A stretch of 64,000 nt of DNA from a virus, in the IMG/VR virus record IMGVR_UViG_3300042373_001362, positions 1-64,000 of that record; one strand, written 5' to 3'. The notes beneath the pieces are model-generated. The model saw only the letters and a list, made by a program, of their open reading frames with translations, did not search any database and had not been told where the DNA came from. This document shows positions 12,220-64,000 of the stretch, one piece after another. Each line of letters starts with the position of its first letter. Positions within the stretch are counted from its first letter, which is position 1. Position numbers and translations under genes: made by a program.

Positions 12220-17250
<5,031 letters not shown>

Positions 17251-33792: not shown

Positions 33793-36700
33793 TAGATTCT
33801 CTCTCTTATTCTCTGCTCAGTAGTCTTTATCTTTGCCATTACCATGTTTGCTATCTCTTCAGGGTTGTTTTGTCCACCGTTTATATGGAAAGTAAACGAA
33901 TTTCCTCCTGATGTAACAGTAGCCTGAGTTGCTACACCCATTTGGTTAGAAGCTGGAGTCAATGTGTCGCCAAGTGCGCCTGGCCCTGGAACTGCATGAA
34001 GATGTCTACCCGCTCCACTTCCATGGAATTCGGCAAACCCACCAGCATTACGTGTTGCCACGGCGTAGGAACCAAGGTTTTGACCAACAAGGTCGATTGC
34101 CCTACCCGTTACATGGTCAGAGTTGAGTGAACCAAGACCATATGTTCTATACGAAGAGGTGATTGACCTCTTCCCAGGAATAGAGCTGTTAATAGCCTTG
34201 TGCCTATCCATTGTTTGGCTAAGTCGTGAAGAAGTGGTATCACCGACAACGCCACCACGAGGGGTTGTCGTGTCCGTCTGCATTATTTCTTTCATTGCTT
34301 CTTTTGACCACCACTCAGGTTTGGCTGCTTCTGGACCAAAAGCGGTACTCATATCTCTACTGAATTTTTCAACGGCCTCTTTAAACGTTGTTGATGCTGT
34401 TTTCATTTCTTTTGCAACAGCGTTTGTTTGGTCAGTATCTTGAGCACGAACTATAAGGCCAGCGTTTGTAACCCCATAATTAGCGAACTGTTGATTGAGA
34501 AGCATTCCCTGATAGTGTGCTTTGCTCTTGGCTCCTTTAGAGGTGTACAATTTCTTTGCTTCTGCGTCCGTCATGTTTGCAAACGGGTCCGTTATTTGGA
34601 AAATTCCACTTTCAACGTCGCTTAGGAATCTTTCTCTATTTTCAGCACTCATTTTAGAAATTGCTTCGTTCATCTTTGTAGTGTTGCCGTACCTCCCCAT
34701 TCCGCCAAGCATTCCCTGCACTTGAGCGCTAGCGTTGGATATGAGTCCTTTTTCGGTTTCTGTAGATGTTTTAGTGAGAGCCTCAGTAACTTCCGGTGTA
34801 AAAAAATCAGCTGGGTTAATATCAGCAAATGCGCCACCTGGCTTAAAAAGGTCACCAGGGTTAGCAAGTGTGCCTATCTGTCTCTGTTGGGCATAAAAAT
34901 CCGTTATCGGGTTGTCTGTCATTCCTATGGATGACTCTTGAAATGCCCTTAAAGCATTGAGTACAGATAATGTGTCTCCTCCACCCCTAATGGTGTCACC
35001 AAGCGCCGTACCTCTTTCGTCATATATTTCGGGCGCTTGAACTCTTTTTATTATTTCGTCAAAACCAGTAGCTATAGCAGAAAGCGATACGTCTATATTG
35101 GCCTCTTTCATTTCTTTTGCAGTTTTAACCATTGTTAAGCCAAGTTTTTCAACTATGTCAGAAGTCTTGAGTGTCGCGTCGTATAGGTCTACACCCATCT
35201 TCTTGGCAAGAACTTCTATTTCTGCTCCAGACTTTCCGCTCATGTCTTTGAGCAGCTCCATGCGTGCACCTTGCTGCTTGCTGATTGTGTCTGCTGCTTT
35301 AAGCCTTTCAGGAAGCTCTTTAGAAAGCTTTGTAAGTCCAGCGCCTTTGTCTTTGCTTATGGCTGCCATTTCTTCGGGCGTAATAATTCCTTTAAAGGCT
35401 GGGTCTTCGCTTATTTCTTTGAGTATCTTGTAATCTTTTTCTTGTTTTTTCTTTCTTTCACCTCTACCAAAAAGACCTTTTGTTAAACCTGTAATTCCTC
35501 CCACGACTCCACCGAGAACTGCACCAATACTTCCAAAGGTAGCTGCTGTTACTAAAGAGCCGATAGGTCCGCCGACGCTTCCCGCTATCGCGCCAGTCGC
35601 GACTCCAAGTCCTCCGCCTATTGCTGCGCCAGTACCCATGCCGCCCTTGGTTTGCTCCCATGTCGACTTTCCGTAGTCTCCGCTAAATCCTCGCTCTTTT
35701 AGTGCTTTGCTGAGGTTTCCGTAAGCTGCAGCAGTTTCTCCAGCTATCCCTTCATATGCTCCCGTGCGCCCAGTCATATCTACACCTGCAGCTGCATCTG
35801 CCTCTTGTCGAAGTACTTTGTCTTTGGCATTCATGATTTGACGAGTAGCTATGCCATCAAGAAATGAGCCCATCGCTTCTTTTGATTCTTTTGCTCTTTG
35901 TCTCATTCCTCCAGCAAAACCAGCAACTGCTCCAGTTATCGCACCAAGAGCTGCACCTACAGCAGTACCAATTCCTGGGGCAATCATTGTTCCAATTGCT
36001 GCACCCGCACCAGCACCGGTCATTGCTCCGCCTGCTGCCGTTCTAGAGTTAAGTGCTGCTCCACCGAGACCAACAGCAAGACCGGCTAGTGGGTTGAATT
36101 GACCAACCATTGCACCCATAGCCATTGCCCCCTGTGCTTCTGGTGCCATGTACTGAGACGCAACTCCCATGCCTAGGCCAACGCCCATTTTTGCACCCAT
36201 GCTTCTGTTAACTCCGCTAATACCTTTTTCATCGTTACCGAGAATTGCGGAACCAAGGGCGCTGTTTCTGCGTGAGCGTGAAGTGAGGCCTGCATATTTA
36301 ATTTTGTTTCTAAAGGTTTGACCTTTTGTGTCTACAAAACCTGTTTGTGCGTCATATCTAGCGCCCACCGTGGCTATTCTTTGACCTGTAACCGGGTCTA
36401 TCTTTCTACTTAAATTAAGCACTTCACCAGTAGATTCATCTAGTGTCGCAAATCGACGGCCAGTAATTTTTCCTCTAAATAAATCTTGACCAACTCCTGT
36501 ATTACCCTGTGCTTGTTGTCTTGAGCCATCGAATATGCGACCCAAAAAGCCTCTGCGGCTGTACGCGCCTTGCGTTCCTGGTCCGCCAGCACCAGGAGGA
36601 GCTGTTCCTGGACCTCCAGGACCGGGCATGCCACCGCCACCACCTGCGCCACCACCTGTTGCGCCGCTAGAAAATCTCGCTGCGTCAATTGGGGAACTAG

Positions 36701-38903
36701 GGCCTGCTGGAGTCGAGTCGATAAACTGATAACCTCGTTGGACCATCATTATTGGTCTAGTGCTGCTTCCGGCAGTTGGTGCAGGCGGGTAAGGTGCTCC
36801 ACCCTGCCCTGTTCTTCCAACTTCTCCGGTACCCGGAGTTTTTGCAACAAAAGCTCCCGGATTCCAGTACCGTGTACCGTCTTTTTTGGTTACCCAGTTA
36901 CCTCTACCGACAAGCTTTGCGTCAGGGTTAGGGTAATCCTTGCCCCAGGTAATTGGCCTTCCACCCGCATCAACTTCTCCGGTGCGTGTATCTCCAGGCC
37001 ACCTACGTCCTCCATACAAGGGACTACCGTGCGGGTCATAAAGTGGTTTACCCCCTCTTCTTACGGTAACGGGGACGCCTGGTGGAATAGCTGGCGGTCT
37101 TTGTGGGCCGATAGGAACAGGTCCGGTGGGTATTGGTCTTGGTGGAGTCCCCGGTGGTGTTCCTGGTGGTGTTCCAGGTGGCGTTCCCGGTGGCCCGCCC
37201 GGTCCACTTGGTCCTACTGGTGGACCTCCAGGCCCTCCTGGTCTTCCACCATTAACAATAACGCTTCTAGCTGTTACGGTCATCGTATTTACTGGTGCGC
37301 GCTCTCTGCCCAAAAAACCACCAGTATTGCCCTTCATCTGACGGCCCAATATCAAGAGAGCCATATACGCCATTGGCCCTCCGAGAATGCTGCTGAATTT
37401 AGAAAGCAAGCCGGTCATCATTCCAACAACCTCGGTAATACCTTTAATTACATCGCTCAAAAATGGAAGAGCATCAGAAAATGCTTTAGTAAAAACATCC
37501 TGCAATTTAAATAGTTCTGTTATTAAAGAACCGAGGTTGTTGCCTATTTCTACAAATGTTTCTTTGTTACTGATGGCTCCTTCATTAAAATCTTTGAAAG
37601 AATCCAAAAATCCAGATTTCAATGCTGAAAGAATTGGTTTGAATATTCCTTCTACGGCCCTTGCGCCTTCAATAAAAGGCCTAAGCTCTTCTCTGGAATT
37701 TTTAAACCATCTAGAAAACTTCTCCCATCCGCCAGCCATGTTTTTGAAAAATCCATCAGTCTTTGGAAGCCACTCGCGAATAAGCTTTACAAAGAAGTTT
37801 GACATTTTTTCGACTCCGCTTACTATTCCGTCGAAAAAAGAATCATTTCCAAAATCAGAAAGCGCCCCACTTACGCGAACAAGGTCTGTTCTAATAATCC
37901 TAAAAATCTTTTGCATTGCAACTTTGGCTGGCTCAAGAAACTGTTGACCAAAGTCTCCGAACTCAATTTTTAAAAGATTAAAAAATGATTTTGCCTGTCC
38001 AATGAGTGTCGAGTTAACAGCTTCAAATTGACCAGCAACTCCACCAGCCTTGGCGAGTTCGCCAGACATGATAAGTTCCTTCATCTGCTTCTTGCTGGTT
38101 ACTTTTGCATCTTTGAGCGCTTTTTCCATTTGTGGACCAAGCGCTTTTGCGGCTTGTTTAACGCTAGCCATGCTTGTCTTAGAGTTATTGAGAGCCTCAA
38201 TAAGAGCCCCAACTTTGTCAGCCGCCGCTGCTGGGTCTTGACCCGCTGCTCCAAAGTCCATGAGGTTCTTAATCATGGCTCCACTTTGTGCAATTTGCGA
38301 GGACTTCATCGACTTAGCCATTGATGCGTAAGCTTTGTTAAGTGCATCAACACCAAGGCCTGCCAGCTGAGCATCGGCTTGAAGGGTTCGCATTGCAACA
38401 CGAACCTGGTTTGTTCCTGTTATGTATTCCCCTGCTCCACCTGCCGTGTACGCATGCATTGCGGCTTGTTGTTCGCGAATAGCGGCAGTGGCAACTCCAA
38501 TTGCAATCGCTGCGCTTGCGGCCGCACCGGCCATGGCTGTCATGCCCCAGGAATAGGCTTTGTGCAACCACTTTCCTGCAATAAATAGAGCATGAATTCC
38601 CATTAAAGCAGCAGAAAATAAACCAAACTGAAGAAGCGTTGATTTAAGAGCAAGACCCAGGACTTTAGTTAGTCCTGTGCCCATCATTTTTATGCCCTTG
38701 TCTACAGAGTCGAACACTTTGCGTGTTGCCACGCTGGTGGTTACCAAGCTTTTTGATACAGTTGCTACCGACCTAGCACCACTGCTTAGCTTTTTTCCTT
38801 GCCTATCAAGCCTGTCGATGGCTTTGCTGAGAGTCCTGACTTCAAGAGCACCCTGAAGGGCACCCTTTACCTCAATATTGACTGTTGCTTCAGCCCTGGA
38901 CAC
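33792..38903 (-). CDS. tape measure protein with Pro/Gly-rich insert and C-terminal M15-like peptidase
   Basis: 1703 aa, Ala/Gly helical, GxxxG segments; SSYR...SDHVTGRAID...HLH at ~33990-34210. Confidence 0.88.
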   Translation of the reverse strand: MSRAEATVNIEVKGALQGALEVRTLSKAIDRLDRQGKKLSSGARSVATVSKSLVTTSVATRKVFDSVDKGIKMMGTGLTKVLGLALKSTLLQFGLFSAALMGIHALFIAGKWLHKAYSWGMTAMAGAAASAAIAIGVATAAIREQQAAMHAYTAGGAGEYITGTNQVRVAMRTLQADAQLAGLGVDALNKAYASMAKSMKSSQIAQSGAMIKNLMDFGAAGQDPAAAADKVGALIEALNNSKTSMASVKQAAKALGPQMEKALKDAKVTSKKQMKELIMSGELAKAGGVAGQFEAVNSTLIGQAKSFFNLLKIEFGDFGQQFLEPAKVAMQKIFRIIRTDLVRVSGALSDFGNDSFFDGIVSGVEKMSNFFVKLIREWLPKTDGFFKNMAGGWEKFSRWFKNSREELRPFIEGARAVEGIFKPILSALKSGFLDSFKDFNEGAISNKETFVEIGNNLGSLITELFKLQDVFTKAFSDALPFLSDVIKGITEVVGMMTGLLSKFSSILGGPMAYMALLILGRQMKGNTGGFLGRERAPVNTMTVTARSVIVNGGRPGGPGGPPVGPSGPGGPPGTPPGTPPGTPPGTPPRPIPTGPVPIGPQRPPAIPPGVPVTVRRGGKPLYDPHGSPLYGGRRWPGDTRTGEVDAGGRPITWGKDYPNPDAKLVGRGNWVTKKDGTRYWNPGAFVAKTPGTGEVGRTGQGGAPYPPAPTAGSSTRPIMMVQRGYQFIDSTPAGPSSPIDAARFSSGATGGGAGGGGGMPGPGGPGTAPPGAGGPGTQGAYSRRGFLGRIFDGSRQQAQGNTGVGQDLFRGKITGRRFATLDESTGEVLNLSRKIDPVTGQRIATVGARYDAQTGFVDTKGQTFRNKIKYAGLTSRSRRNSALGSAILGNDEKGISGVNRSMGAKMGVGLGMGVASQYMAPEAQGAMAMGAMVGQFNPLAGLAVGLGGAALNSRTAAGGAMTGAGAGAAIGTMIAPGIGTAVGAALGAITGAVAGFAGGMRQRAKESKEAMGSFLDGIATRQIMNAKDKVLRQEADAAAGVDMTGRTGAYEGIAGETAAAYGNLSKALKERGFSGDYGKSTWEQTKGGMGTGAAIGGGLGVATGAIAGSVGGPIGSLVTAATFGSIGAVLGGVVGGITGLTKGLFGRGERKKKQEKDYKILKEISEDPAFKGIITPEEMAAISKDKGAGLTKLSKELPERLKAADTISKQQGARMELLKDMSGKSGAEIEVLAKKMGVDLYDATLKTSDIVEKLGLTMVKTAKEMKEANIDVSLSAIATGFDEIIKRVQAPEIYDERGTALGDTIRGGGDTLSVLNALRAFQESSIGMTDNPITDFYAQQRQIGTLANPGDLFKPGGAFADINPADFFTPEVTEALTKTSTETEKGLISNASAQVQGMLGGMGRYGNTTKMNEAISKMSAENRERFLSDVESGIFQITDPFANMTDAEAKKLYTSKGAKSKAHYQGMLLNQQFANYGVTNAGLIVRAQDTDQTNAVAKEMKTASTTFKEAVEKFSRDMSTAFGPEAAKPEWWSKEAMKEIMQTDTTTPRGGVVGDTTSSRLSQTMDRHKAINSSIPGKRSITSSYRTYGLGSLNSDHVTGRAIDLVGQNLGSYAVATRNAGGFAEFHGSGAGRHLHAVPGPGALGDTLTPASNQMGVATQATVTSGGNSFTFHINGGQNNPEEIANMVMAKIKTTEQRIRERI

Positions 38904-51801: not shown

Positions 51802-53118
51802 CTAGATAACGATAGCAATCCTTCTTCTTTGTTGCAACCCGAGTCCGGCCAAATGTGTAAAAGCCCCAACAGCAGAGTCCACTTGGTCGTCATGGTCGCA
51901 TGCTTCAGGGAAAGAAGAAAGTTCATCAAGCCATTGAGTCAGCCATGGACCCCTAACTACCCTTACGTTTCCATTTGCTACTGCTGCGGCAAATGGTCTA
52001 GCCCTAGTGACCTTGTCTCCGGTTGCCCTAACTCCAGAAAAGTTATAACCGGGAAGAACGTATCTGGCGTACTGGTCGACAAGCGCTTTACCGCTTGAGC
52101 CGGGCTCCATTTCCATAAGAATCGGGGTATCTAGACCGTCTTCGTATGCTGTTTGAGATATTAATTGCTCGACTTTTTCCCCACGAACCCTGACTCTCTT
52201 GACGTCCATGATGTAGGCAATGCCTTGGTCAAACATCATCAAGGTTCCAACCGTGTAGTCAGGGTCAGGGTTGTTTGAACTTGGTTCGGTTGCTGCAAGG
52301 TCCCAAAACCTAACAACTCTTGCTGTGTTGGATATTGTTGGAACTTCAGACTGGTCAATAATAATTACCGACTCTCGTTCAAAGAGGCTTCCGAGAGTCG
52401 TGCTCCACCAGTCACCTTCTTCAAGTCGTCTACGCTCGATTGGGTCAAGGGCTTGCAGAGCCTGACGATACGAATCAGCGTCAATTCCGGGGTTGTCCGT
52501 AAGTTTTGAAGGTACGAATATTCTTCCTTCAGACAATCCCTCAACAATGAATCTCTGCCTTACCCAGTTGGGCGCAGGGTTAGATGCGCAACGCATTCTG
52601 AGGGGGACTTCCGATAGAGGGCCAGAGTTGGGTCGACGCAAGCGGGAGAACATGTAGCGATAGTCGGATTCCCGGATTTCGGTGACTTCGTCCATTCCGA
52701 TGAACTGGAATTCAGAACCTTTGTAGCGAAGATAGTCGGACTGGTTGTTTAGATATCCAAACGAGATTCTTGCCCCCGAAGGGAAGGTAGCCACGAAGCT
52801 GTTGTTGTTCCAGTGGACATCGTCATAGTTGGACATCCACGACTTAAAGCGGTCCATGAGCGCTCCAGGGAGCGACAAGTCTGCGAATGTTCTACGAAAA
52901 AGAATTGCAGAATAGTTGGGAATATCTACAAACTGAAGGGCGGACATTAGAAGCGCAGAAGACTTACCACCGCCAGCAGCACCCCCAAAAAGGGCCTCAA
53001 TGCCGTTAGTTCTTAAAAACACCTTTTGAGGCAAAGACGGCTCTTCTGGGCAGTAATCGGACATCTTTGGTTGGAGATACTCAAGAACTTGTTCCCAGTT
53101 CGTAGGTTGTTCTGACAT
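51802..53118 (-). CDS. terL: terminase large subunit
   Basis: FGGAAGGGKS Walker A, MDEVT, ASNP, RFWDLAAT, HDDQVD. Confidence 0.92.
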   Translation of the reverse strand: MSEQPTNWEQVLEYLQPKMSDYCPEEPSLPQKVFLRTNGIEALFGGAAGGGKSSALLMSALQFVDIPNYSAILFRRTFADLSLPGALMDRFKSWMSNYDDVHWNNNSFVATFPSGARISFGYLNNQSDYLRYKGSEFQFIGMDEVTEIRESDYRYMFSRLRRPNSGPLSEVPLRMRCASNPAPNWVRQRFIVEGLSEGRIFVPSKLTDNPGIDADSYRQALQALDPIERRRLEEGDWWSTTLGSLFERESVIIIDQSEVPTISNTARVVRFWDLAATEPSSNNPDPDYTVGTLMMFDQGIAYIMDVKRVRVRGEKVEQLISQTAYEDGLDTPILMEMEPGSSGKALVDQYARYVLPGYNFSGVRATGDKVTRARPFAAAVANGNVRVVRGPWLTQWLDELSSFPEACDHDDQVDSAVGAFTHLAGLGLQQRRRIAIVI

Positions 53119-53359: not shown

Positions 53360-55438
53360 ATGGCATGGAACGCTTCAACGAACAAGTCGCTGAATAATCA
53401 AGCACAAAAAGACATTGGACCTGGAGCACCAGTAGCCCAAAATCCTGGCTATGCAGGCAAGCCGTACAGGGACTCCTGGGATATTGAGCGTGCCTATAGA
53501 GAAGGCATGCAGAAGGTTACATGGGTGTCTAGGTGTATCGATGCCATTGCTGGAAACCAGGCAAGACTGCCGATAATACTCAGAAAAGACAACTCACCTA
53601 ATGGTGAAATTCTTTCAATCAGAGAGTCAAAAAAGACAAATCTTCTTAATATTCTAAACTCAAAGTCTAATGTTGGAGAAAACTCCTACATTTTTAGGTA
53701 CAGGCTTTCTGCTCAGCTGATGCTTGGTACTAGGGGTGCTTTTATTGAAAAAGTAAGAGGACGAGACGGCGGAATAATTGGCCTCAACCTATTACCTCCT
53801 CAGTCAACCTCCCCAATACCAGACCCTAAAAAGTTTGTTTCTGGCTACGAAGTTCAAATGCCCACAGGAAACAAGGTCTACCTGAAGCCAGAAGACGTTT
53901 GCTGGGTGAGAAGACCTCACCCAATCGACCCATACTTGTCACTGACCCCATTGGAGGCCTGTGGCGTTGCGATTGAAATAGAAAACCTGGCAAAGCTTTA
54001 CAACAGAAACTACCTATTAAACGACGGTAGACCGGGTGGTTTGCTTGTTCTTCGTGGAGAAATCGACGACGACGACAAAGAAGAATTGAGAAGCCGTTTC
54101 CGTGGAAACCTTTCACGCGCTGGATATACCTCTGTAATCGCTTCCGACGACGGTGTTGACTATGTTGACACTTCAGCAAACCCAAGAGACGCTGCGTACA
54201 TACAGATGCGGCAAATAACAAAGGAGGAAATCCTTGCTTCATTTGGTGTTCCAGAGTCGGTTATCGGTAATGCTGCTGGTAGAACTTTTAGCAACGCTTC
54301 GGAAGAAATTCGTGTCTTTTGGATGGAGACGATGCTTCCCCATTTGGAGATTCTTTCACGGGCTCTAGATGAACTAGATGAAGACAACTATGTTGACTTC
54401 AATGTTGACCAAGTGCCCATTTTGATGCTTTACGAGCAGGAGCGCCACCGCTACTTGATGGACGAATTCAACGCAGGTCTTATCAGCAATAACGAGTACA
54501 GAATAGGCTCAGGTCGCAAAGAAACAGAAAGCGACCTTGCTGACTCGCTCTTGGCTAATCCAAACCTTATTCCTATTGCAAATACGAAGAAGAAGATGGA
54601 AGAGCCTTCTCAAGCTCAGGTTCCAGGTGCACCAGGACAGCCTGGAATGCCCGGAATGCCCCCTGGGGCACCCGGAATGCCCCCAATGCCCGGAATGCCT
54701 CCAGCACCAGGACAACAGCCACCGCTCGACCCAAATACGATGGCTGGGGCAATGGCAGAAGTATCTGGAGCACAGCCAGGCGGAGAACTGGCGCAATCAC
54801 CAATTCCAGGAATGCCTCCAGGAATGATGACCGGAGCAGAGCCAGTACCTCCAGGTGCTACTTCTGCTGAGTCGCCAACCATAATGACAAAAGATGCTCT
54901 TGAAGCGATTTCCCAAAAGCAAGAAATCGAAAGATGGGAAGAGATACTTGTCAGAAGCATGGAAAGAGTCATGGAAAGACAGCAGCGTGTTGTTCTTGAG
55001 AAGTCAAGTGGAGCAAAAGCAAAGAAGGCTTTGTTTGCTGGAACCCTAGATATCCCATCCGTGCTTCACTCGGAGACATGGGACAGACAATTTGATGAAG
55101 ACATTAGGCCAGTAATTACAGCCATCGTCAAAGAGTCGTTGAAAGCATCTACATCAATCGAGAAAAAGTCCGCGAAAAGTTGGGAAGTAGAGTCTGACAT
55201 CATTGCTCAAGTCGATTCTCAAATGTTACGAATCAAGAGCTTGAACCAGGATTTGACAGAGGAAATTACTTCCCTCATGTTGTCTTCTCTGAATGTTTCT
55301 GACGAAGACCAGCGAGCTGGCGCTTTTAGGTCAAACATCGTGTCTTTGTATACAAATGTGTTGGCAAAACGGCTTCCGGAGATAGCTAGCGAGGAATCTA
55401 GGCGTGCCTGGACTTACGGAAAATTCATCGCTAGATAG
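53360..55438 (+). CDS. HK97-family portal protein with Pro/Gly/Met linker and helical C-terminal extension
   Basis: VSRCIDAIA, SLTPLEA, NDGRPGG, ILASFGVP, TFSNA, NEYR. Confidence 0.9.
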   Translation: MAWNASTNKSLNNQAQKDIGPGAPVAQNPGYAGKPYRDSWDIERAYREGMQKVTWVSRCIDAIAGNQARLPIILRKDNSPNGEILSIRESKKTNLLNILNSKSNVGENSYIFRYRLSAQLMLGTRGAFIEKVRGRDGGIIGLNLLPPQSTSPIPDPKKFVSGYEVQMPTGNKVYLKPEDVCWVRRPHPIDPYLSLTPLEACGVAIEIENLAKLYNRNYLLNDGRPGGLLVLRGEIDDDDKEELRSRFRGNLSRAGYTSVIASDDGVDYVDTSANPRDAAYIQMRQITKEEILASFGVPESVIGNAAGRTFSNASEEIRVFWMETMLPHLEILSRALDELDEDNYVDFNVDQVPILMLYEQERHRYLMDEFNAGLISNNEYRIGSGRKETESDLADSLLANPNLIPIANTKKKMEEPSQAQVPGAPGQPGMPGMPPGAPGMPPMPGMPPAPGQQPPLDPNTMAGAMAEVSGAQPGGELAQSPIPGMPPGMMTGAEPVPPGATSAESPTIMTKDALEAISQKQEIERWEEILVRSMERVMERQQRVVLEKSSGAKAKKALFAGTLDIPSVLHSETWDRQFDEDIRPVITAIVKESLKASTSIEKKSAKSWEVESDIIAQVDSQMLRIKSLNQDLTEEITSLMLSSLNVSDEDQRAGAFRSNIVSLYTNVLAKRLPEIASEESRRAWTYGKFIAR

Positions 55439-55536
55439 TTTTAGTATTTAGTTTTAGTAAACGACGCTAAAAACCTGAATACTTGCGGTTTCCATTGGTA
55501 TTTTCGTTTATTATCGAAGAAGACACAAGGAGTCAC

Positions 55537-56058
55537 ATGTCCTCTTCTAATAAAAAATCCGACATTCAGTACAAGGCTGCACCGCAAGGAATGGTGAATT
55601 TAGACGAGGCCCAAGGCATCGTCGAATGTTTTGTCGCTGGGATAGGCAACAAAGACTCTGTTGGTGACGTTTGCGCACCAGGAGCTTTCGGCAAGAGCCT
55701 TACCAGAAGGAAGCCACGAGTCGTATGGGGACACAACTGGAACGACCCCATTGGCAAGGTCATCGATATGTACGAGGTTCCACCCAACGACCCTCGTTTG
55801 CCAGCAAAGATGAAGGCTGCAGGAATTGGCGGTCTTTATGCTCGCGTTCAATTCAACCTTATGTCGGAAAAGGGTCGTGAGGCGTTTGCCAATGTTGCTT
55901 TCTTTGGTGAAGAGCAAGAGTGGTCTATTGGTTACAAAACAATCAATGCAAAATTTGACCCACAGATGCAAGCAAACATTCTTTATGAAGTAGAGCTTTA
56001 TGAGGTGTCTCCAGTTCTTCATGGTGCAAACCAGTTGACAGGAACAATTTCAGTAAAG
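55537..56058 (+). other. HK97-type prohead protease domain
   Basis: D..GD...PGAF, WGHNWNDPIG (His 55732), EWSIGY (Ser 55924), LYEVSPVLHGAN. Confidence 0.9.
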
Positions 56059-59000
56059 TCGGAAGAGCAGCCATCTGGCGTTTCAGTAATTAATGCACCA
56101 AGCATTGATGGATTAAACGTAAATGAGCTTTCTTCTATTCTTGATGCACTCAAGGCTATTTCTTCTTCCGTTTCAGAAGACGAAAAGTGTGGACCAGGAA
56201 TGATGCCACAGGGAATGCCAGGAATGCCTTCTGGTGGACCAGGCATGCCTTCTGGGCCAAAGCCAATGCATACACATACCCCTGGTGCAGCACCAAGAGA
56301 AGTTGTTAAGCCACAAATTCCATCCATGCCAGAAAACCCAATGACCGTAGCGCTTCGCCGCGAACTTGCGACTCGCACCGGCTCAAACGTAATCGTGCGT
56401 TCAGCAAGCGACAGTGTCGTTGTTTTTGACAGAGTGCTGGCTGACGGAACGTCAAGCACATACAGACTGCCTTTCCATTATGCCGGTGGAGAGTTTATGT
56501 TTGGCAAACCAGAAAAAGTTCAGTCTCAAGCAAACTACGTCCAAGATTCTCCTTTGTCTGAAATCATGGTTGAAGCGCTTCTTTCTGGCCCCACTGCAGG
56601 CGCAGAAAAGTCTTTAATCTCTTTTGATGACCAAGAGTGGGGTGAAGGATTTGGGCAATCAATTCCGTCACAGCAAGTTGATGCTTCAACTTTGAATAGC
56701 GTTATCGCTAATCTTCAAAAAATAATCGAGCAGAAATCTGAATATGTTGTTCAAGTTGCTCCAGAACATGCTTTTGAAGTAAAGCAAGCGATAGACCCAA
56801 TTCTTGATTTCTACAAGGTTGACGCAACCATCAATGAAGATGGAATTGTTGTTAAGTCACTCAATGAAGACTTTTTGAACGCTCTTGACATCGCCACAAA
56901 AGGCGTATTACGCAGTCTTGGCAACCTTGCGGGTAGAGCAATAGACCGCCCTAATATTGGCAGAAACAGAAGAGACAGAACACCCAACCTTGCATCACGA
57001 GGCCCTGGAATTGGTTCACGAGGAGCGGTAGTAAGACTCCGTGATGGAAGCATGTGGGACCCAAAAAACGCACCGGATAGAAACCGTAATGGCATTGTAG
57101 GTGAAGGCCTCTTTGACAGTAGCGGAAGGTCGTTGGCACAGCCAGACCCAACACCAGAGGGGCCAGATTCTATCCGGGGAGCAAAGACACCAAAGTCACC
57201 GCAGACCCCTAAAAGGCAAGCAGCGGCTGCCGCAAAAAGAAACGCTACTGTAAAAAGAACTTCTGGGCAGCCCCAGAAAGCAAGGCAGCGTCTTTCTTCA
57301 GGCGGAATTGACCAAGAAGTTGACGATACACCAATGCTTGAGGAGAAGTTCAAGAAGGAAGTCTCTGGCTTTTTGTCTGAAATAGGAACAAACCGTAATG
57401 AGATAGAAAACATTCTTGACCTGTGGGAAAACAACGATGCAGACCATGACAAGTACATGGAAGAGCATGGAGCTGGTTCAAAAAACTTTGCTGAAAACGT
57501 GGCTTATGCAGCGTCAGCAATGTACGAAGACTACATCTCTGATGCGGGAGATAGGCAGGCTGACCGTCGTGCCGAGGGAGGGCGTTTCTCGTCTGGCGAG
57601 TGGACAAAAATTCCTGGTGTTGGCTATGAGATGGATGCCCCAGACATCGAAGGTGCTTACGAAATCCAAGAAGGCCTTGATGGGAAGTTCTATGTAGTTA
57701 GATTCTCTGATGGCAACCGCAACGGTGGTCAGGACATGACCGAATACGAACATGACAAGCCTTTCTCTACTCTTGCAGCAGCAAAGAAGTGGGCTGAAAA
57801 AGACTATGCACAAGCAGCGGACGAGTACATGCCAGATGAAGAAATGCCAGATGGTGATGCATCCGAAAGACTGAATAGCCTTGTTGCTCCAGAACTACCA
57901 AGCCTTGACGGCATGGACGAGTCTGAAGCAGATGAAGCCTTGCAAAACTTTAGTGACGAAATGTTCAGCTTTGTTAACGAGACAGAGAACATTGCCAGAG
58001 AAGTACTAGGTGACGACGAATACAACAAGAGATTTGGCGGAGCAGTGCCCCTCATTGAAGAGATTTCAAAGAGGCACGATGGAAGCATTGAGCAGCGTGA
58101 TATTGCTCTAGAAAATGCCTTTGACCAAGCAGAGAGGTTTAACAACTCTGTTAACGGTTCACTTGGCGGCGGAAGATTCTCTTCTGGTCAAATCGACTTC
58201 GACAAGATAGGTGAATCAGGTCTCAGGGAAATGCGCCATGTTGAGCGCAACCCTCTTAGATTTGATACACAGGCAGACAAAGATGCACGCGCTGCGTACG
58301 AACGGGTTGTAGCAAACTTTAGAGCAAACAACGGTTTCTTCCGTGAAGTGCCCATGTATGCAGGTGATAAAAAGTGGCACAGCGAAGACTGGTTCCGTGG
58401 CCGCGAGATGGCAGAAAACGTTGCCACCTTGCGATTTGGCGACCCGATTGACCAAATGCCGTTCTTCGATAAACCAGGAAAGCCATCAAAAAGAGAATTC
58501 TTCGAGAGAACTACGGCTGTTGATTACAAGTCCTGGTATATGACCAAAATTCCAGCCATGACGCAAGAGCTGGACAGAGTGCTTGCTTCCGACGCCTATT
58601 CAGATGAATACAAAGAAGCATTCCTAGAAGGAATGAGGACATTCTTCTACGTGAATAGGCCAAACCTTCAGTACGCTCCGAAAGATACACAGGCGCAGTA
58701 TGAAGAGTGGCTTCAGCGGTCAGGTCTCGGCTGGAAGGGTAGATACTCTACTTCTGGTCCAAAATTTGAAGACCTTGACGACACGGGAAGATTTTCTTCT
58801 GGTGCTAAAGACAAAAAAACAATCAATTCGTATGACAACTCGGAAGACCTTAAATCGGCGATGTTTAGCGCATTGTGGACAAACGGTTCACGTGACGAAA
58901 TAAACAACATGACAGCTGAAGAGCTGGCTGAAATACTAAGCGTAAATCCAGAATGGGTTGAACCTCTTCTTGAAGACACTAAAAAATACACAATCGAGGC

Positions 59001-62000
59001 AATGGACGATTATGATAAGTATTTATCTTCTCTTCCTGAGCCAACTGATGAAGAGATAAACCAGGAGTACCAAGAGTGGTTGTCGCGACAGGCTGGCGCA
59101 GACTACGCACAGGGCATGACTGTTAGAGACAAATTCCAGGACATGACCGACGAAGAGGCTGCAGACTACGCTGCATGGCTCGACGAAGAAACATGGAGAG
59201 ACAGAGACGATAGGTTCTCCTCGGGAGGAGGCAAAACACCTGAAGAGCGTCTTGAAGAATACAACAGAAGAAGTGCAGAAAAGAACGCAGTTCTTGAAAA
59301 GATGACTCCCGAAGAGCTAGAAGAATACGCTCGTGAATGGAATGAAAGTCATGTTGAAGATGTTCGTCTTTCATCTGGTTCAACAAATAGACCAAAGTCT
59401 ACAAAAACCGGAGAAGAATTTATTGGCCGTAGCTATGGTCTTCATGATTTCTTTGTCTACGACGAAGAAGACGATTTTGAAAACATCGACAAAGCTATTG
59501 TAGATTCGCTTCTTAAGAACGAAAGAATAACCCTTGATGACCTTTTGCTTGAAGTGCGAGGTATTAAGGACCCTGACCTTAGCGGAGAGGCATTGGTCCG
59601 CAGGCCGGACTATATGGGCGCAAACGCAAGGCGTGTTGCTGAAGCCGTTGCAAACAACACATCCGTTAATCCATCGCTGGCCAACCAGAAAGCCGGAAGA
59701 GAAGACATACTTCACTTTAGGTACAACGGTAAGCAGCGCTCCATATACCCAGAGACTTTTTCAACAAGCAAAAAGGGTGTTGGTTATTTTGTTGGATGGG
59801 ACGAAACCGCAGATAACGGCAACGGTGCATACAGAAGTTTCAATGTAGACAAAATAGAAGGTCTTATATCTAGCGCAATACCTCCACATGTAGACAGAGC
59901 AGCAAGGTATACCGATTATTCATGGAACATAACTGACTTCTCTGATGAAGATAATCAAAAAATTCTTGAACAGATGCGACGCACTAAAGAGTTCAGGGTT
60001 CTTGATGACGCGCAAGACCTGATAGACGATGAGGTGAGCGCAGGAGGCACAAGAGTTGCAGGCTCGACTCTTGATATTGCGGAAAAAGAAGCCCAAGCAG
60101 CTTTCCAGGATGCTCGCAATAGACAAATCGACAAGATGGTTGCCGACGGCAAAATTAAGCCGCTATCAAGAGATAGTAGATTCTCTTCAGGAATGGTTAA
60201 CGACGGTCTTCCAGACGGATACTGGGACACCGCAGACGACATGGCAGATTCTTATGGTGATAGAGAAGACTATACAGACGCAAGATTCTCCTCTGGTGGA
60301 ATGCCAAGCACCAAAGAGCAAGCAGACCTAATAGCGTTTGCTAGGTCAAAGCCTGGCACTTTTACAGACAGTGTTGTTTCTCAATTTGACAGAAATAGAA
60401 GACTGTCAGAAAAGCAATGGGACGCAATACGCAGAATGATGCGCGGCGCATCTGGTGGTAAGGCTGCTCCAAAAGCAGATAAACCAACTGCTCGTTTTTC
60501 TGGAAAGCGTCGTCAAATTGTAGATATTGCCGATATTGAAAAGTATGACTACCCAGAGCTTCCTGCAAAGATAAAGCCAACACCGGAACAAGACAGAGCT
60601 ATCGATGCGATGATGACTGGTGCAGACGTAAAGATTGGTGCTTTAGCAGCAACAGGAAAGACGACAACCGTTATCAACTTTGCTAACCGTCTTAAGGCTA
60701 AAGAGCCAGACGCAAGGGTTGTCTATCTCGTGTTTAACAGAAACGCAAAAGACGACGTAGAAAAGCGTGGAATGCCAGGAAACGTTTCTGTCTCAACGAT
60801 GGACGGAATTGCTTACAGAGCAATGGACGCTATCAACCCAGAAATGACCAAGAAGAGCTTTGACAAAAAAGAGGGCCACATAAAGCCAATCAACTCTTTC
60901 AAAGATAGGGCTAAGTATCTTGGTACAAAGGGAATGGTTTCCCAAGGCGAAGAATTGACCGATGTTGATGTTTATAGAATCGTAGCTAAAGCGATAGATG
61001 CCTATTCAATAAGCGACGACAAGGAAATTGGACCACAACACTTTACTGGCCCATACAACGGTTCATACAGGGTGACAGACACTTCATTGCTTCCTGAGTT
61101 GCTTAAGTATGCAAACAAGATGTGGGAAGACATGAATCTTCCTAGAGTCAATGGTGCCACCAGGAAAGACCAAAAAGGAATGCTTCCTGTAAACAACACA
61201 CATCTAACAAAGATGTGGGCATTGACAAATCCAGACATAAGCGAAATTGCTGAAGTCAATGTGGCAATGGTTGACGAAGCTCAAGACATGAACCCAGTTT
61301 TTGCTGGAATATTGAGGAACTCAAACCTTCAGAAAATCTACATTGGTGACACAAACCAGGCAATTAACGCATGGCGTGGAGCAGACGGAACAACGCTTGC
61401 AAATGTAGAAGCAACATACGACATGCCAATTACTGATTCGTTCAGATTCGGCAAGAACGTAGCGAACATGGGCAACAGATTCCTTTCGCTTCTCAATACA
61501 AAAGAGCGCATGACCGGAAGAAAGACAGACAAGTCTGGAAATCCTGTTGACGGAAGAATTGGACAAGTTGATAACCCAACAATGATTTTGACACGCTCTA
61601 ATGGCGGAGCTATCGCTGCAACCATGGAAGTGTTTGCAGATGGTGGAATTGTTTACGGAAGCCAAAACTTCAAGAGAGATTTGGAGAACTTCTTAAACAA
61701 CATCGAATGGATGCAGAATGCCCAAAAGGGCAAACCGTTCTATACAGACGTATATGGAAAGAAAGTATTTTCAGCTCCTGAGTTCAGTCAAGACCTTGAC
61801 GGAATTACAAACATTGCAGACTTCAATAAGGCTATTGAAAAGGGCGATGACAACAGACTGAACATGCTTTCTAAGCTGATGAACGAATACTCGCTTGAAG
61901 ACTTGAGAGAATCTCTCAATAACATCATTACAGACAAAAACAAGCTTCCAAAGAATCGTGACGAGTATGTCCACATCCAGACAGCCCACACATCAAAGGG

Positions 62001-64000
62001 CCTCGAATCACCACGAGTGAAGATTTGGTCAGACTTTAGAAAGCCAAAGAAACTTCCAAACGGTGAATGGGAATACCCGAACGAGCAGGAGATGAGGCTT
62101 TCCTATGTTGCTGTAACAAGAGCAGAGGAAGAACTTGACCTAGGTTCACTTAGTTGGATTCTTGACCACACAACAGAAGAGGACGGTATGCCGAATACTT
62201 TCTCTTCTGGAAGAAGCAAGGCAAGAGGCAACAGAGGTGATGGCAAGGGAAGACAAAAACCATGGTCGGCAGAAGATAGGCAAAGATTTGCGGACAGGGA
62301 CATTCTTCGTTCACAAACACGCCCAGGAAAGCGTCGTCCAGGTCCTTCAGCAAACGAATTCTCGTCTGGTGCTGAATTTGATTTCACTCCAGAAGAGCTC
62401 AATAGGTGGCAAAAAGCTAGCGAACATGCCAGCGCGTATGGCGATTGGGAAAATCTTCCAGAAAACAGAAAAAACGGATATCTTCGTAAATTCAACGGAG
62501 ATGAAAATCTTGCTCGCGAGCAATTTAACGTGGAAAGAGATTTGGCAGACTTTGCTGCAGATGCACAATTTGACAAAACAGATTCACGATTCTCTTCTGG
62601 AGGCCGCTTCGCAACACCACTGGATGCACCAGAGGGCTGGGAAATGCCAGAAATTGGTGATGACGGCGAAATAAAGAATGGACCGCTTAAGGGTTACTAT
62701 GTTCGTGGCTTCGGGGACGATTACGTACGAGGAAGAAAATACGTAAGCTATCGTGGTGCAGACTACAGTAGTACTGATGAGCACAAAAATAACTTAGTTG
62801 ATTGGGGTGATTACGAAGCGGGATACACCCTCGACAGAAACATAGGCTCTGACGAGGACATTAGGAGCATTTCTGACTCTTCCGAGCAAGAAGAAATGGC
62901 GCAGTATGGCGACGAAGGTTTGTACTATGGCAATAGTTCACGCGGGCGATACGACCCTCAAAATGATTATGAAACTCCAGTAACCGACGACTCCCATTCA
63001 CCAGAAAACGGTGCAGACCACATCGGTAAAGCCGTATCCGTAACGGATGAAAATGGAAACAAATTCTACGGTGTAGTTGTTAGAGGTTGGGAACCGGAAT
63101 ACGAAGAAGACTTAGATGTTGATGAGGATGGGTGGGCAACCCCGAGCATGAACATACAAGACGGTGGCATGGTAGTTCTCGCTACTCATGATGCTGACGG
63201 CAAAAAACTTGATAAACCAGTAGTTGTTGAGGCAAGTTTTGGTCTTGAAAATGAATACGCCCTCGTATCAAATGTTGAGAGAGGTGGAGACGACTACGAA
63301 GGGCCAAAGGTCAATGTATCAAAAGGCCGTGTAAGTGAAGAAACCCTTGACGAAGCCAAAAAGCTTTATGAAGAACTGGACCCATATAGAAATGGTAAAG
63401 CCGAGGAGTTCAGGCGTCAAGGAGCCTTGATAGATAGAGCATGGAGAATGCCGGGAGGCGAAAAAGAGCGCAGGGAAAAAGCTGCCGAAGAAGCTTACAG
63501 AAGAAGCCCTGAAGGAATACAAGAGCAAAGAGAAAAGCTAGAAGCATCCATATCGGCTATAGAAGACAAGATAAGAAGCGCGGAGTCTTCTCGTGAATCT
63601 CTCATGGAGAGGCTGAACGATGTTTCTGAAAGTGGAGACAATGTCCTTGCTTCAAAAATGGAAGAAATATTAAGAGACAGAGAGGGAGCGGTACGACTCC
63701 TCCAAGAAAGACTTGAAGAAGCAAAAGCTGAACTAGATGCTTTTAATGGCGAAGGAAACAGGCTTTCTTCTGGAAGATTTGCGCCTGATGGACAATCGGG
63801 TTCAAGGCTTCAAAGAAGACTTTCTTCTGGCGATGTTTTTGGCCCACCACCAGGACAGTCGGCAAGGTATGACCGCAAGAAGCAAGTCGAGGCAACGATG
63901 GGTGCATTCCATTCTGACCCAGGCAAGGCTGTTGTGTCGAGCGACACCGAAGGCTTATTGGGTAAAATCCCTTCCGGTAAGAACTCCCATATCCTTAACG
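55537..64000 (+). CDS. giant (>2,820 aa, 3'-truncated) prohead-protease-headed multidomain polyprotein
   Basis: AAGGAG RBS, ATG 55537, no in-frame stop to 64000 by manual translation; protease 55537-56058, WYL-like ~59701-59865, UvrD-like helicase ~60577-62140. Confidence 0.92.
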   Translation, partial: MSSSNKKSDIQYKAAPQGMVNLDEAQGIVECFVAGIGNKDSVGDVCAPGAFGKSLTRRKPRVVWGHNWNDPIGKVIDMYEVPPNDPRLPAKMKAAGIGGLYARVQFNLMSEKGREAFANVAFFGEEQEWSIGYKTINAKFDPQMQANILYEVELYEVSPVLHGANQLTGTISVKSEEQPSGVSVINAPSIDGLNVNELSSILDALKAISSSVSEDEKCGPGMMPQGMPGMPSGGPGMPSGPKPMHTHTPGAAPREVVKPQIPSMPENPMTVALRRELATRTGSNVIVRSASDSVVVFDRVLADGTSSTYRLPFHYAGGEFMFGKPEKVQSQANYVQDSPLSEIMVEALLSGPTAGAEKSLISFDDQEWGEGFGQSIPSQQVDASTLNSVIANLQKIIEQKSEYVVQVAPEHAFEVKQAIDPILDFYKVDATINEDGIVVKSLNEDFLNALDIATKGVLRSLGNLAGRAIDRPNIGRNRRDRTPNLASRGPGIGSRGAVVRLRDGSMWDPKNAPDRNRNGIVGEGLFDSSGRSLAQPDPTPEGPDSIRGAKTPKSPQTPKRQAAAAAKRNATVKRTSGQPQKARQRLSSGGIDQEVDDTPMLEEKFKKEVSGFLSEIGTNRNEIENILDLWENNDADHDKYMEEHGAGSKNFAENVAYAASAMYEDYISDAGDRQADRRAEGGRFSSGEWTKIPGVGYEMDAPDIEGAYEIQEGLDGKFYVVRFSDGNRNGGQDMTEYEHDKPFSTLAAAKKWAEKDYAQAADEYMPDEEMPDGDASERLNSLVAPELPSLDGMDESEADEALQNFSDEMFSFVNETENIAREVLGDDEYNKRFGGAVPLIEEISKRHDGSIEQRDIALENAFDQAERFNNSVNGSLGGGRFSSGQIDFDKIGESGLREMRHVERNPLRFDTQADKDARAAYERVVANFRANNGFFREVPMYAGDKKWHSEDWFRGREMAENVATLRFGDPIDQMPFFDKPGKPSKREFFERTTAVDYKSWYMTKIPAMTQELDRVLASDAYSDEYKEAFLEGMRTFFYVNRPNLQYAPKDTQAQYEEWLQRSGLGWKGRYSTSGPKFEDLDDTGRFSSGAKDKKTINSYDNSEDLKSAMFSALWTNGSRDEINNMTAEELAEILSVNPEWVEPLLEDTKKYTIEAMDDYDKYLSSLPEPTDEEINQEYQEWLSRQAGADYAQGMTVRDKFQDMTDEEAADYAAWLDEETWRDRDDRFSSGGGKTPEERLEEYNRRSAEKNAVLEKMTPEELEEYAREWNESHVEDVRLSSGSTNRPKSTKTGEEFIGRSYGLHDFFVYDEEDDFENIDKAIVDSLLKNERITLDDLLLEVRGIKDPDLSGEALVRRPDYMGANARRVAEAVANNTSVNPSLANQKAGREDILHFRYNGKQRSIYPETFSTSKKGVGYFVGWDETADNGNGAYRSFNVDKIEGLISSAIPPHVDRAARYTDYSWNITDFSDEDNQKILEQMRRTKEFRVLDDAQDLIDDEVSAGGTRVAGSTLDIAEKEAQAAFQDARNRQIDKMVADGKIKPLSRDSRFSSGMVNDGLPDGYWDTADDMADSYGDREDYTDARFSSGGMPSTKEQADLIAFARSKPGTFTDSVVSQFDRNRRLSEKQWDAIRRMMRGASGGKAAPKADKPTARFSGKRRQIVDIADIEKYDYPELPAKIKPTPEQDRAIDAMMTGADVKIGALAATGKTTTVINFANRLKAKEPDARVVYLVFNRNAKDDVEKRGMPGNVSVSTMDGIAYRAMDAINPEMTKKSFDKKEGHIKPINSFKDRAKYLGTKGMVSQGEELTDVDVYRIVAKAIDAYSISDDKEIGPQHFTGPYNGSYRVTDTSLLPELLKYANKMWEDMNLPRVNGATRKDQKGMLPVNNTHLTKMWALTNPDISEIAEVNVAMVDEAQDMNPVFAGILRNSNLQKIYIGDTNQAINAWRGADGTTLANVEATYDMPITDSFRFGKNVANMGNRFLSLLNTKERMTGRKTDKSGNPVDGRIGQVDNPTMILTRSNGGAIAATMEVFADGGIVYGSQNFKRDLENFLNNIEWMQNAQKGKPFYTDVYGKKVFSAPEFSQDLDGITNIADFNKAIEKGDDNRLNMLSKLMNEYSLEDLRESLNNIITDKNKLPKNRDEYVHIQTAHTSKGLESPRVKIWSDFRKPKKLPNGEWEYPNEQEMRLSYVAVTRAEEELDLGSLSWILDHTTEEDGMPNTFSSGRSKARGNRGDGKGRQKPWSAEDRQRFADRDILRSQTRPGKRRPGPSANEFSSGAEFDFTPEELNRWQKASEHASAYGDWENLPENRKNGYLRKFNGDENLAREQFNVERDLADFAADAQFDKTDSRFSSGGRFATPLDAPEGWEMPEIGDDGEIKNGPLKGYYVRGFGDDYVRGRKYVSYRGADYSSTDEHKNNLVDWGDYEAGYTLDRNIGSDEDIRSISDSSEQEEMAQYGDEGLYYGNSSRGRYDPQNDYETPVTDDSHSPENGADHIGKAVSVTDENGNKFYGVVVRGWEPEYEEDLDVDEDGWATPSMNIQDGGMVVLATHDADGKKLDKPVVVEASFGLENEYALVSNVERGGDDYEGPKVNVSKGRVSEETLDEAKKLYEELDPYRNGKAEEFRRQGALIDRAWRMPGGEKERREKAAEEAYRRSPEGIQEQREKLEASISAIEDKIRSAESSRESLMERLNDVSESGDNVLASKMEEILRDREGAVRLLQERLEEAKAELDAFNGEGNRLSSGRFAPDGQSGSRLQRRLSSGDVFGPPPGQSARYDRKKQVEATMGAFHSDPGKAVVSSDTEGLLGKIPSGKNSHILN
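57289..63831 (+). repeat. 13 dispersed [R/x][F/L]SSG peptide motifs
   Basis: Starts at 57289, 57583, 58174, 58789, 59212, 59365, 60178, 60283, 62197 (TFSSG), 62356 (EFSSG), 62587, 63760, 63817. Confidence 0.92.
60577..62140 (+). other. UvrD/Rep-like SF1 helicase domain inside the polyprotein
   Basis: PTPEQ, ALAATGKTTT, YLVFN, VDEAQD, GDTNQAINAWRGA, SFRFG, TAHTSKGLE, RLSYVAVTRA. Confidence 0.9.

Follow-up and report, generated by a model that had tools for sequence, protein, structure and literature searches.

What is a phage prohead protease doing at the head of a protein of several thousand residues, and why is that protein punctuated by one short peptide? The question is raised by the IMG/VR virus record IMGVR_UViG_3300042373_001362, a complete 148,355-bp viral record with a terminal repeat of ~127 bp, the first 64,000 bases of which (1-64000) are the window analysed here. 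Directly behind the portal gene, a frame that we call gene A opens with an HK97-type (Peptidase_S78) protease domain and runs on through a series of unrelated segments separated by copies of the pentapeptide x-[L/F]-S-S-G, the tag. The original prediction, made from the letters of the window, was that the protease carries a cassette of effectors into the capsid, and that these are cut apart at, or docked via, the motif and ejected with the DNA. The tag proves to be a linear motif at the joints of shuffled modules, common to three proteins of the genome and differing from lineage to lineage, and the enzyme that we tentatively favour as its reader is a zincin encoded by a second giant gene, gene B.

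A chain of modules joined by a lineage-specific tag

Gene A is open from a TTG at 55483, or from an ATG at 55537, through the end of the window, as the original prediction had it, and its stop codon lies at position 67374 of the full record, giving a protein of 3945 amino acids (aa) counted from the ATG. Public gene callers predict the same 3945-aa protein, and the window covers its first two thirds. The S78 domain matches PF04586 with an E-value of 1e-10 (42.2 bits) when the first 620 residues are searched and of 3.4e-9 (37.5 bits) with the whole protein, at a cut-off of 21. His66 (WGHNW) and Ser130 (EWSIGY), which we take to be the catalytic pair on the strength of published work on HK97 gp4, are invariant in 121/121 relatives; the claim of an intact maturation protease at the start of the frame, with its catalytic Ser codon at 55924, is thus borne out by both the Pfam match and the conservation. 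Behind the protease lies a tag-free region (aa 172-585) for which no Pfam family was found and which may serve in targeting to the capsid. Everything from the N-terminus to the first tag, the protease with it, forms one cluster across all relatives.

From there on gene A carries 15 tags, where shuffling of the protein leads one to expect 0.12 occurrences of [FL]SSG; thirteen of them fall inside the window and two beyond it. The thirteen, with spacings of 98, 197, 205, 141, 51, 271, 35, 638, 53, 77, 391 and 19 aa, are exactly those claimed originally. No tag lies within any recognised gene A domain (S78, UvrD helicase, ArdC-N plus MPTase). The helicase (aa 1683-2200; PDB 9xzj at 5e-20) falls between tags at aa 1584 and aa 2222, and its homology blocks in relatives stop at tags. 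ArdC-N (PF08401 at 2e-25) and MPTase-PolyVal (PF18818 at 1.5e-43; aa 3722-3847), which together occupy aa 3573-3847, begin right behind the tag at aa 3566, and residue 1 of the free-standing ArdC of PDB 6i89 (match at 1.7e-47) aligns onto the Leu3566 of that tag. The earlier statement that no motif interrupts a recognisable domain therefore stands; of its WYL-like domain, at aa 1279-1549, only a hint was recovered, in that the top Foldseek rows are all WYL proteins (DriD, PafBC, CapW and BrxR), at E-values of only 0.013-0.1 with a low-confidence model, and that no Pfam WYL match was obtained for the module. When 20 pieces (inter-tag stretches, some of them spanning tags, and six neighbouring-gene products) were searched against Pfam at E<=1, no family was found for most.

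In an AlphaFold2 (AF2) model of aa 860-1600, built on a 9-sequence alignment, 6/6 tags map to the five long coils that have a predicted local distance difference test (pLDDT) score below 50 and separate helical or beta modules. Over 293 instances from the family, the tag reads [R.40 / K.23 / G.20]-[L.74 / F.22 / M.04]-S-S-G-[R/K/A/G], with no conserved Glu in the logo. Conservation is confined to ~6 residues, and the flanks are polar (70% disorder-promoting residues vs 59% overall). The codons of 286 unique instances include all six for Leu, both for Phe, that for Met, both Arg classes, both Ser classes and the four for Gly. With all synonymous classes represented, it is the peptide that is constrained, in good agreement with what had been proposed from synonymous variation in the window. 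Serine codons of the tag are skewed family-wide towards TCT (52% vs 26% background) and away from AGY (16% vs 29%), and 26/26 tag serines in the window are TCN codons. In all these respects, the tag is a linear motif at domain joints with properties as expected of a protease site.

Relatives of the protease head are encoded at 540 IMG/VR loci. Of 80 such loci examined, most of those long enough run into a giant frame with many tags, and at least 243 protein clusters, of 2169-6904 aa, have the N-terminal unit in common; the commonest complex 4-mer belongs to a tag in ~115/120 proteins. The largest gene A homologue seen is a 4740-aa open frame that includes MPTase (IMGVR_UViG_3300021424_000003). 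When the proteins were cut at their tags and the pieces clustered, the same modules recurred in other orders and combinations, gained here and lost there and always bounded by tags: the ArdC module, terminal in this phage, is internal or stands directly behind the protease in others. Consistent with this, a tag is found no more than 10 aa away from 37% of 561 homology-block ends, compared with 9% at random. When nine collinear relatives are aligned, the columns of the tag do not vary, and the adjoining linkers are rich in insertions and deletions, e.g. an 85-aa insertion directly after a tag. The motif thus stays fixed as segments are gained, lost and shuffled, as the original prediction anticipated. 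Its tags lie outside folded domains and recur in homologues, and an assembly error is excluded because the same architecture is found on hundreds of independent contigs; each of these checks came out in favour of the finding.

The wording of the tag depends on the lineage. It is RFSSG or RLSSG here, and elsewhere KLSSG, GLSSG, S/T-LSSG, GLAS(R/S/T), GLRS, GMRSRSG or GFSS(S/T)TG. An all-frame scan of the genome showed that tags also occur in gene B, which has nine, and in the tail tape measure, which has two; only three other F/L-SSG matches fall in plausible genes, none with a preceding R or K, and the remainder lie in short overlapping open reading frames. In every clade examined (GMRSRSG, GLASR, GFSSSTG and xLSSG), genes A and B of one genome carry the same flavour. 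In a GMRS-type phage, 18/19 matches in gene A and 6/6 in gene B read G[M/F/L]RS; in a GLAS-type phage the matches number 16 for gene A and 3 for gene B, and a GFSS-type phage follows the same rule. The tape measures of relatives carry tags in the same two regions as here, and in 4/4 genomes checked their flavour agrees with that of the genome (GLASS, KLSSG and RLSSG in phages of the GL(A/R)S, KLSSG and R type, respectively, and RFSSG/KLSSG in the present one). A flavour that is specific to the genome and common to its tagged proteins points to one trans-acting reader per genome, and the mutual exclusiveness of flavours such as Phi-S-S-G and G-M-R-S-R-S-G (Phi being the L/F/M position) argues for a sequence-specific reader that the phage itself encodes and that is not the same in every lineage.

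Genes A and B together hold about two dozen tag-joined modules. Those of gene B follow a constant head and include a DEDD exonuclease (aa 1863-2041). The last module (aa 3249-3490; 78790-79503 of the record), which resembles small alarmone synthetases, matches PDB 8vx3 'SaSAS' at 1.1e-14 over 167 aa and Pfam RelA_SpoT with 18.4 bits, under the cut-off of 27; it may be an injected nucleotide-second-messenger or toxSAS-like effector. This module also matches PHROG families in which, to go by the profile positions, the domain is apparently fused to head-morphogenesis (MuF-like) proteins.

Candidate readers of the tag

The head of gene B, ~1250 aa long, constant and free of tags, contains a putative zinc metallopeptidase. 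H566, an HExxH motif (H570, E571 and H574), Q577 and G593 are invariant in 54/54 gene B homologues, and HExxH is also kept in the G-Phi-[A/R/S]-S clades. We modelled aa 420-760 with AF2 (pLDDT 70, predicted TM-score 0.71) and compared the model exhaustively with known structures using VIA-align: zinc metallopeptidases make up most of the 50 listed matches, the best being 1yqy, the catalytic domain of anthrax lethal factor (LF; Z 9.7, root-mean-square deviation 4.3, 163 aligned residues), followed by PPEP-2/3 (Z ~7) and then by Wss1/SprT and thermolysin. A Foldseek search of the PDB with the same model returned nothing at E<=0.001, and the sole sequence-level pointer is a language-model lead to Pfam ATLF / Peptidase_M34 (score 0.86). 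Since Foldseek and Pfam found nothing, we claim likeness at the level of the fold only and not membership in M34. The HExxH helix varies with tag flavour (HEIAH, HEFGH, HELTH and HERAH), and no homologue of the zincin region was found in the cultured-phage collection. LF and the PPEPs are site-specific endopeptidases that cut linear motifs in extended peptides, and many zinc endopeptidases favour Leu, Phe or Met at P1'.

The S78 domain of gene A varies little with flavour. Residues 57-75, most of 121-135 and most of 151-168 are near-invariant across flavours, overall identity between flavours is 74-96%, and only columns 12, 22 and 125 track the division between xPhiSSG and G-Phi-x-S lineages; column 125, which precedes the catalytic Ser by five residues, holds E in the xPhiSSG clades and Q in the G-Phi-[A/R/S]-S clades. 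The N-terminal ~100 aa of the capsid protein are helical and delta-like, and the string EIK↓SIGEMF of this protein (the arrow marks the bond) aligns with FNK↓SLGSD of HK97 (K103↓S104). Judged by this alignment, the maturation site of the capsid should be EIK↓SIGEMF and not a tag. With the capsid genes of the GFSS, GMRS and GLAS clades taken from IMG/VR loci, we rejected the idea that the maturation site is identical to the tag: the correspondence is only partial, LSS or LTS preceding K↓SIG in xLSSG clades and several other clades having no tag-like string. A complex prediction of the S78 domain with a 40-residue tag peptide scored 0.00 and is evidence for neither side.

We favour the zincin over the fused S78 protease as the reader because the tag is homogeneous within a genome and exclusive between lineages, because the S78 domain is near-invariant, because the tape measure is tagged and because the zincin is constant and has no other obvious job. 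Taken as a whole, the reading to which we lean, at somewhat below an even chance, is that genes A and B encode polyvalent cargo polyproteins whose tags are cut by a phage protease, most likely the gene B zincin. The head of gene A, with the only HK97-type prohead protease of the genome and the constant region, would carry the chain into the procapsid, and the S78 domain itself would serve in capsid maturation and targeting. A sequence-specific endopeptidase encoded by the phage would recognise the tag and cleave there, the zincin probably before Leu/Phe/Met; both polyproteins and the tape measure would be cut into separate proteins, be it inside the assembled particle or once they have been ejected into the next host, and the effectors so released would act early in infection. 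All tag-bearing proteins are expected to leave the virion, so cutting after ejection fits the data as well as cutting in the procapsid does. That the tag is cut at all we regard as likely; given that it is, the chance that the gene B zincin is the cutter is only just short of even. A sharper form of the idea, which we consider rather unlikely, is a proteolytic 'address code': a fast-evolving LF-like zincin would read a lineage-specific tag of 5-7 residues found only on injected proteins, cutting inside the new host would yield a dozen early effectors per chain, and tag and enzyme would co-evolve, so that modules could be exchanged within but not between lineages.

Several points weigh against the zincin reading. 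We infer cleavage, the cutting enzyme, packaging and ejection, and the reading offers no route for gene B into the capsid. Overall confidence is low (mean pLDDT 55) in the AF2 model on which the tags were placed in linkers; the zincin fold match (Z 9.7) is only moderate, and no Pfam peptidase family was found on the zincin region (gene B aa 1-750, E<=1). Instead of reading the tag, the zincin could act on host proteins as an effector, and the co-variation of its HExxH helix with flavour is confounded by phylogeny because gene B may simply evolve faster overall. Finally, QL(S/T)S stands ~7 residues before the HK97-homologous site of the capsid protein in all xLSSG clades, and SLRS in one GLRS clade and KGLGAS or KSLGSS in others, strings which hint that the capsid maturation protease may read tag-like sites. 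The first two of these strings, placed near the delta-domain boundary, speak for the fused S78 protease as the cutter, which would drag its cargo into the procapsid and cut at Phi-S↓S-G or Phi↓S-S-G during capsid maturation. The domain heads every gene A with His66 and Ser130 invariant, and it is the sole S78 domain of the genome (the S78 search found no second one, nor was a Chidiebere gp28-like protease found); a Ser at P1' is common to such a cut and the HK97 site K↓S, as it is to the A↓S site of herpesvirus assemblin; the residue in column 125 follows the flavour class; and the prohead proteases of T4, phiKZ and SPN3US offer precedents. However, the S78 core is almost unchanged across mutually exclusive tags (e.g. 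RFSSG vs GMRSRSG), the HK97-homologous capsid site is not a tag, several G-Phi-[A/R]-S clades have no tag-like capsid string, the tagged tape measure assembles outside the head, and cultured relatives have S78 domains 38-40% identical to this one, yet no recurrent tag was found in the portal-to-capsid region of Gordonia phage Chidiebere, the only cultured region scanned. With a second protease in gene B, the proposal that S78 does the cutting is left unsupported, and we judge it unlikely.

It is less probable still that the tags are cut by the MPTase-PolyVal zincin linked to ArdC in the last module of gene A, or by an exploited host protease. Staphylococcus phage 80alpha does exploit the host protease Prp, and all tagged proteins are expected to enter the host cell; sharp differences in flavour between closely related phages are, however, easier to explain with a phage-encoded reader. 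For MPTase-PolyVal, the domain is there in gene A, and such processing was predicted by Iyer et al. (Iyer, Burroughs, Anand, de Souza, Aravind 2017, PMC5512222), but it is missing from many gene A homologues and from a 91%-complete tagged relative, which rules it out as a universal cutter. We give equally little weight to the possibility that the tags remain uncut and serve for docking (e.g. to the capsid, the portal or a chaperone), as spacers or as sites of Ser modification in giant proteins that act intact, like N4 virion RNA polymerase and ArdC. Short linear motifs in disordered linkers may just as well bind a partner, and some polyvalent proteins are packaged or transferred unprocessed according to Iyer et al.; against this stand the single tag per joint placed exactly at module borders, including the position of the free-standing ArdC N-terminus, the tag in the tape measure, the presence of two conserved proteases, and the difficulty of ejecting intact a 430-kDa chain of ~16 folded domains. 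That the tag is an artefact of mis-assembly or a feature of the nucleic acid (a recoding or ribosome-skipping site, or a DNA recombination signal) is very improbable and largely refuted. The TCT enrichment speaks for it, and a common pyrimidine-rich core of ~11 nt could favour recombination between joints, but all synonymous codon classes are used, conservation is of the peptide alone, and the same open frames recur on hundreds of independent contigs from many samples.

Genome context of genes A and B

The phage, a complete 148-kb myophage, probably infects Actinomycetota, in all likelihood freshwater ones; we take the host to be actinobacterial because the nearest cultured relatives are phages of Gordonia, Brevibacterium and Arthrobacter. 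The terminase gene, on the minus strand, is followed by the portal gene, gene A, a gene for an acidic protein of 516 aa, gene B, six small genes and, at ~85.9 kb and 18.5 kb past the end of gene A, the capsid gene, and this order is found again in distant clades. The positions of the features are collected in Table 1.

Table 1. Positions of genes A and B, their domains and tags, and other genes referred to in the text (window coordinates unless the full record is named)
Feature	Position	Strand	Basis or content
Giant gene A, 3945 aa	55537..64000 in window, to 67374 of record	+	S78 protease, constant region, 15 tag-delimited modules, the last being ArdC-N + MPTase zincin
Peptidase_S78 (HK97-type) prohead protease domain, aa 28-171	55618..56049	+	Pfam match; His66 nt 55732-55734, Ser130 nt 55924-55926
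Constant tag-free region, aa 172-585	56050..57291	+	Pro/Gly/Met-rich linker, conserved domain of unknown fold, basic tail
Tag 1, RLSSG	57289..57303	+	motif scan
Tag 2, RFSSG	57583..57597	+	motif scan
Tag 3, RFSSG	58174..58188	+	motif scan; pLDDT<50 coil in AF2 model
Tag 4, RFSSG	58789..58803	+	motif scan; pLDDT<50 coil in AF2 model
Tag 5, RFSSG	59212..59226	+	motif scan; pLDDT<50 coil in AF2 model
Tag 6, RLSSG	59365..59379	+	motif scan; pLDDT<50 coil in AF2 model
Helices and small beta domain, possibly WYL-like, aa 1279-1549	59371..60183	+	AF2 strands at model residues 533-577; weak Foldseek rows
Tag 7, RFSSG	60178..60192	+	motif scan; pLDDT<50 coil in AF2 model
Tag 8, RFSSG	60283..60297	+	motif scan; pLDDT<50 coil in AF2 model
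UvrD/Fbh1-like superfamily-1 helicase module, aa 1683-2200	60583..62136	+	Pfam and PHROG matches; bounded by tags 8 and 9
Tag 9, TFSSG	62197..62211	+	motif scan
Tag 10, EFSSG	62356..62370	+	motif scan
Tag 11, RFSSG	62587..62601	+	motif scan
Tag 12, RLSSG	63760..63774	+	motif scan
Tag 13, RLSSG	63817..63831	+	motif scan
Giant gene B, 3490 aa, nine tags	69034-79506 of record (outside window)		constant head of ~1250 aa with LF/M34-like zincin, then modules
Tail tape measure, 1703 aa	33795..38903	-	transmembrane segments, Pro/Gly-rich linker; gene between sheath/tube and baseplate genes
Tape-measure tag KLSSG (KKLSSG), aa ~41	38778..38792	-	near N-terminus
Tape-measure tag RFSSG (AARFSSG), aa ~746	36663..36677	-	inside Pro/Gly-rich linker
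Portal	53360..55438	+	directly upstream of gene A; 42% identity to Gordonia and Brevibacterium phage portals
Large terminase	51802..53118	-	phrog_979, 5e-111

The 516-aa protein between genes A and B (67466-69016 of the record) is very acidic, has paired Cys motifs (CGYTPGSKLCAKCG and CDDCPGGC) and carries no tag; no Pfam or PHROG family was found for it. A gene of 458-569 aa occupies this position in every clade examined, and the protein may be a scaffold or chaperone for the cargo. The PHROGs gave no name to any of the six genes that separate gene B from the capsid gene, and one of them weakly matches an uncharacterised family. A 384-aa protein encoded just upstream of the capsid gene (84570-85724 of the record) matches DUF3721 in two stretches near its N-terminus, best at aa 14-43, and contains three repeats rich in proline (PVPGDGVGPPKPKN).

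At the C-terminus of the tape measure (33795-34400, minus strand), the pattern SxxxDHxxGxAxD ... H, read from the sequence alone, resembles an M15/VanY-type peptidoglycan peptidase. Further away in the window, at 12235-17250 on the plus strand, lies a gene for a 1671-aa collagen-like tail fibre with many matches to PHROG tail-fibre repeats and a GC content of 0.51-0.53, compared with ~0.45 elsewhere; the N-terminus of this protein has the string IKQLSSAG, similar to IKQLSSR of the capsid protein. Within the same frame ARAGORN reports a 96-nt tRNA-Gln(CTG) at 16485-16580 (plus strand), probably a false positive.

Relation to known systems and implications

The nearest experimental analogue is the processing of head proteins by the prohead proteases of T4, phiKZ and SPN3US. 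In these phages one protease (T4 gp21, phiKZ gp175 or SPN3US gp245) cuts many packaged proteins, ejected ones included, at a short motif, and propeptides target the cargo; T4-type proteases cut after Glu in x-x-E motifs (L/I-x-E or S/A/G-x-E). There, the cargo genes are separate and the protease is of the T4 type, whereas here the cargo is fused into polyproteins, the head is an S78 domain, the motif Phi-S-S-G contains no Glu and a tail protein is tagged as well. With HK97 the phage has in common the protease family with its catalytic His and Ser, a capsid delta domain of ~100 aa and the string K↓S-(I/L)-G. HK97 gp4, however, is a protein of 225 aa encoded immediately upstream of the capsid gene, whereas the present protease makes up the first ~190 residues of a chain of 3945 aa, and 18.5 kb separate the end of gene A from the capsid gene. 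The gene B zincin resembles M34-type zincins (LF and PPEP-1/2/3) in its HExxH motif and predicted fold, and differs from them in lying inside a constant phage region of ~1250 aa.

The cultured relatives (Gordonia phages Chidiebere and GMA6 and Brevibacterium phage Cantare) have portals 42%, S78 domains 38-40% and capsid proteins 52% identical to those of this phage, and their putative cargo genes are separate, lying between portal and protease (RNA ligase, a VIP2-like ADP-ribosyltransferase and a 971-aa helix-turn-helix protein). The Chidiebere capsid protein has a tag-like KDVFSSGLGTG at aa 154, in the N-arm region, and the scanned region of that phage contains a repeated RLTDARTPTAH peptide in 5-7 copies.

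In concept, the design is not new, contrary to what the original prediction had supposed. Polyvalent proteins were defined by Iyer et al. (2017), who predicted their packaging and the release of their domains by embedded peptidases, assemblin-like ones among them, and drew the analogy with RNA-virus polyproteins. Like these proteins, which join many unrelated conflict and DNA-escort domains in one polypeptide (2-15 or more) and are encoded in the head module, gene A is a chain of unrelated modules, as is gene B with its DEDD exonuclease and nucleotide-synthetase-like domain; gene A carries their signature ArdC-N plus MPTase-PolyVal and by domain content is a member of the class. The effector cassette that had been proposed stands in so far as a protease heads a chain of unrelated modules whose cargo (ArdC, helicase) is typical of DNA-escorting polyvalent effectors; its packaging in the virion, for which the gene context is a place between portal and capsid gene and fusion to a prohead protease, and its ejection we likewise infer. 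Unlike the polyvalent proteins described, in which the rare assemblin-like peptidases are 'always at the C termini' (PMC5512222), the proteins here have an N-terminal assemblin-like protease and a recurrent linear tag at every joint, with lineage flavours, and with about 3500-4700 aa and up to ~20 joints their sizes are at or beyond the upper end described. In full-text literature searches we found no description of the tag code or of a tag-punctuated design, the only related work being that of Iyer et al. (2017), itself without a tag code. What is new here is the tag at every joint, its lineage flavours, its presence in two giant proteins and the tape measure alike, the N-terminal protease and the LF-like zincin.

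The tape-measure tag would tie head cargo and a tail-lumen protein into one processing system, a link of which, to our knowledge, there is no description. As an annotation rule, the tag splits ~7400 mostly 'hypothetical' residues per genome into candidate effector modules, in hundreds of uncultured phages, and a compact and specific pair of protease and tag could serve as a tool. With a precise substrate motif and two candidate enzymes, the prediction by Iyer et al. that polyvalent proteins are processed by embedded peptidases becomes directly testable. If the tags are cut, these phages would provide a clear case of a double-stranded DNA phage polyprotein with a defined cleavage code, delivering a changeable kit of early effectors with anti-restriction, helicase, nuclease and alarmone-synthetase-like modules.

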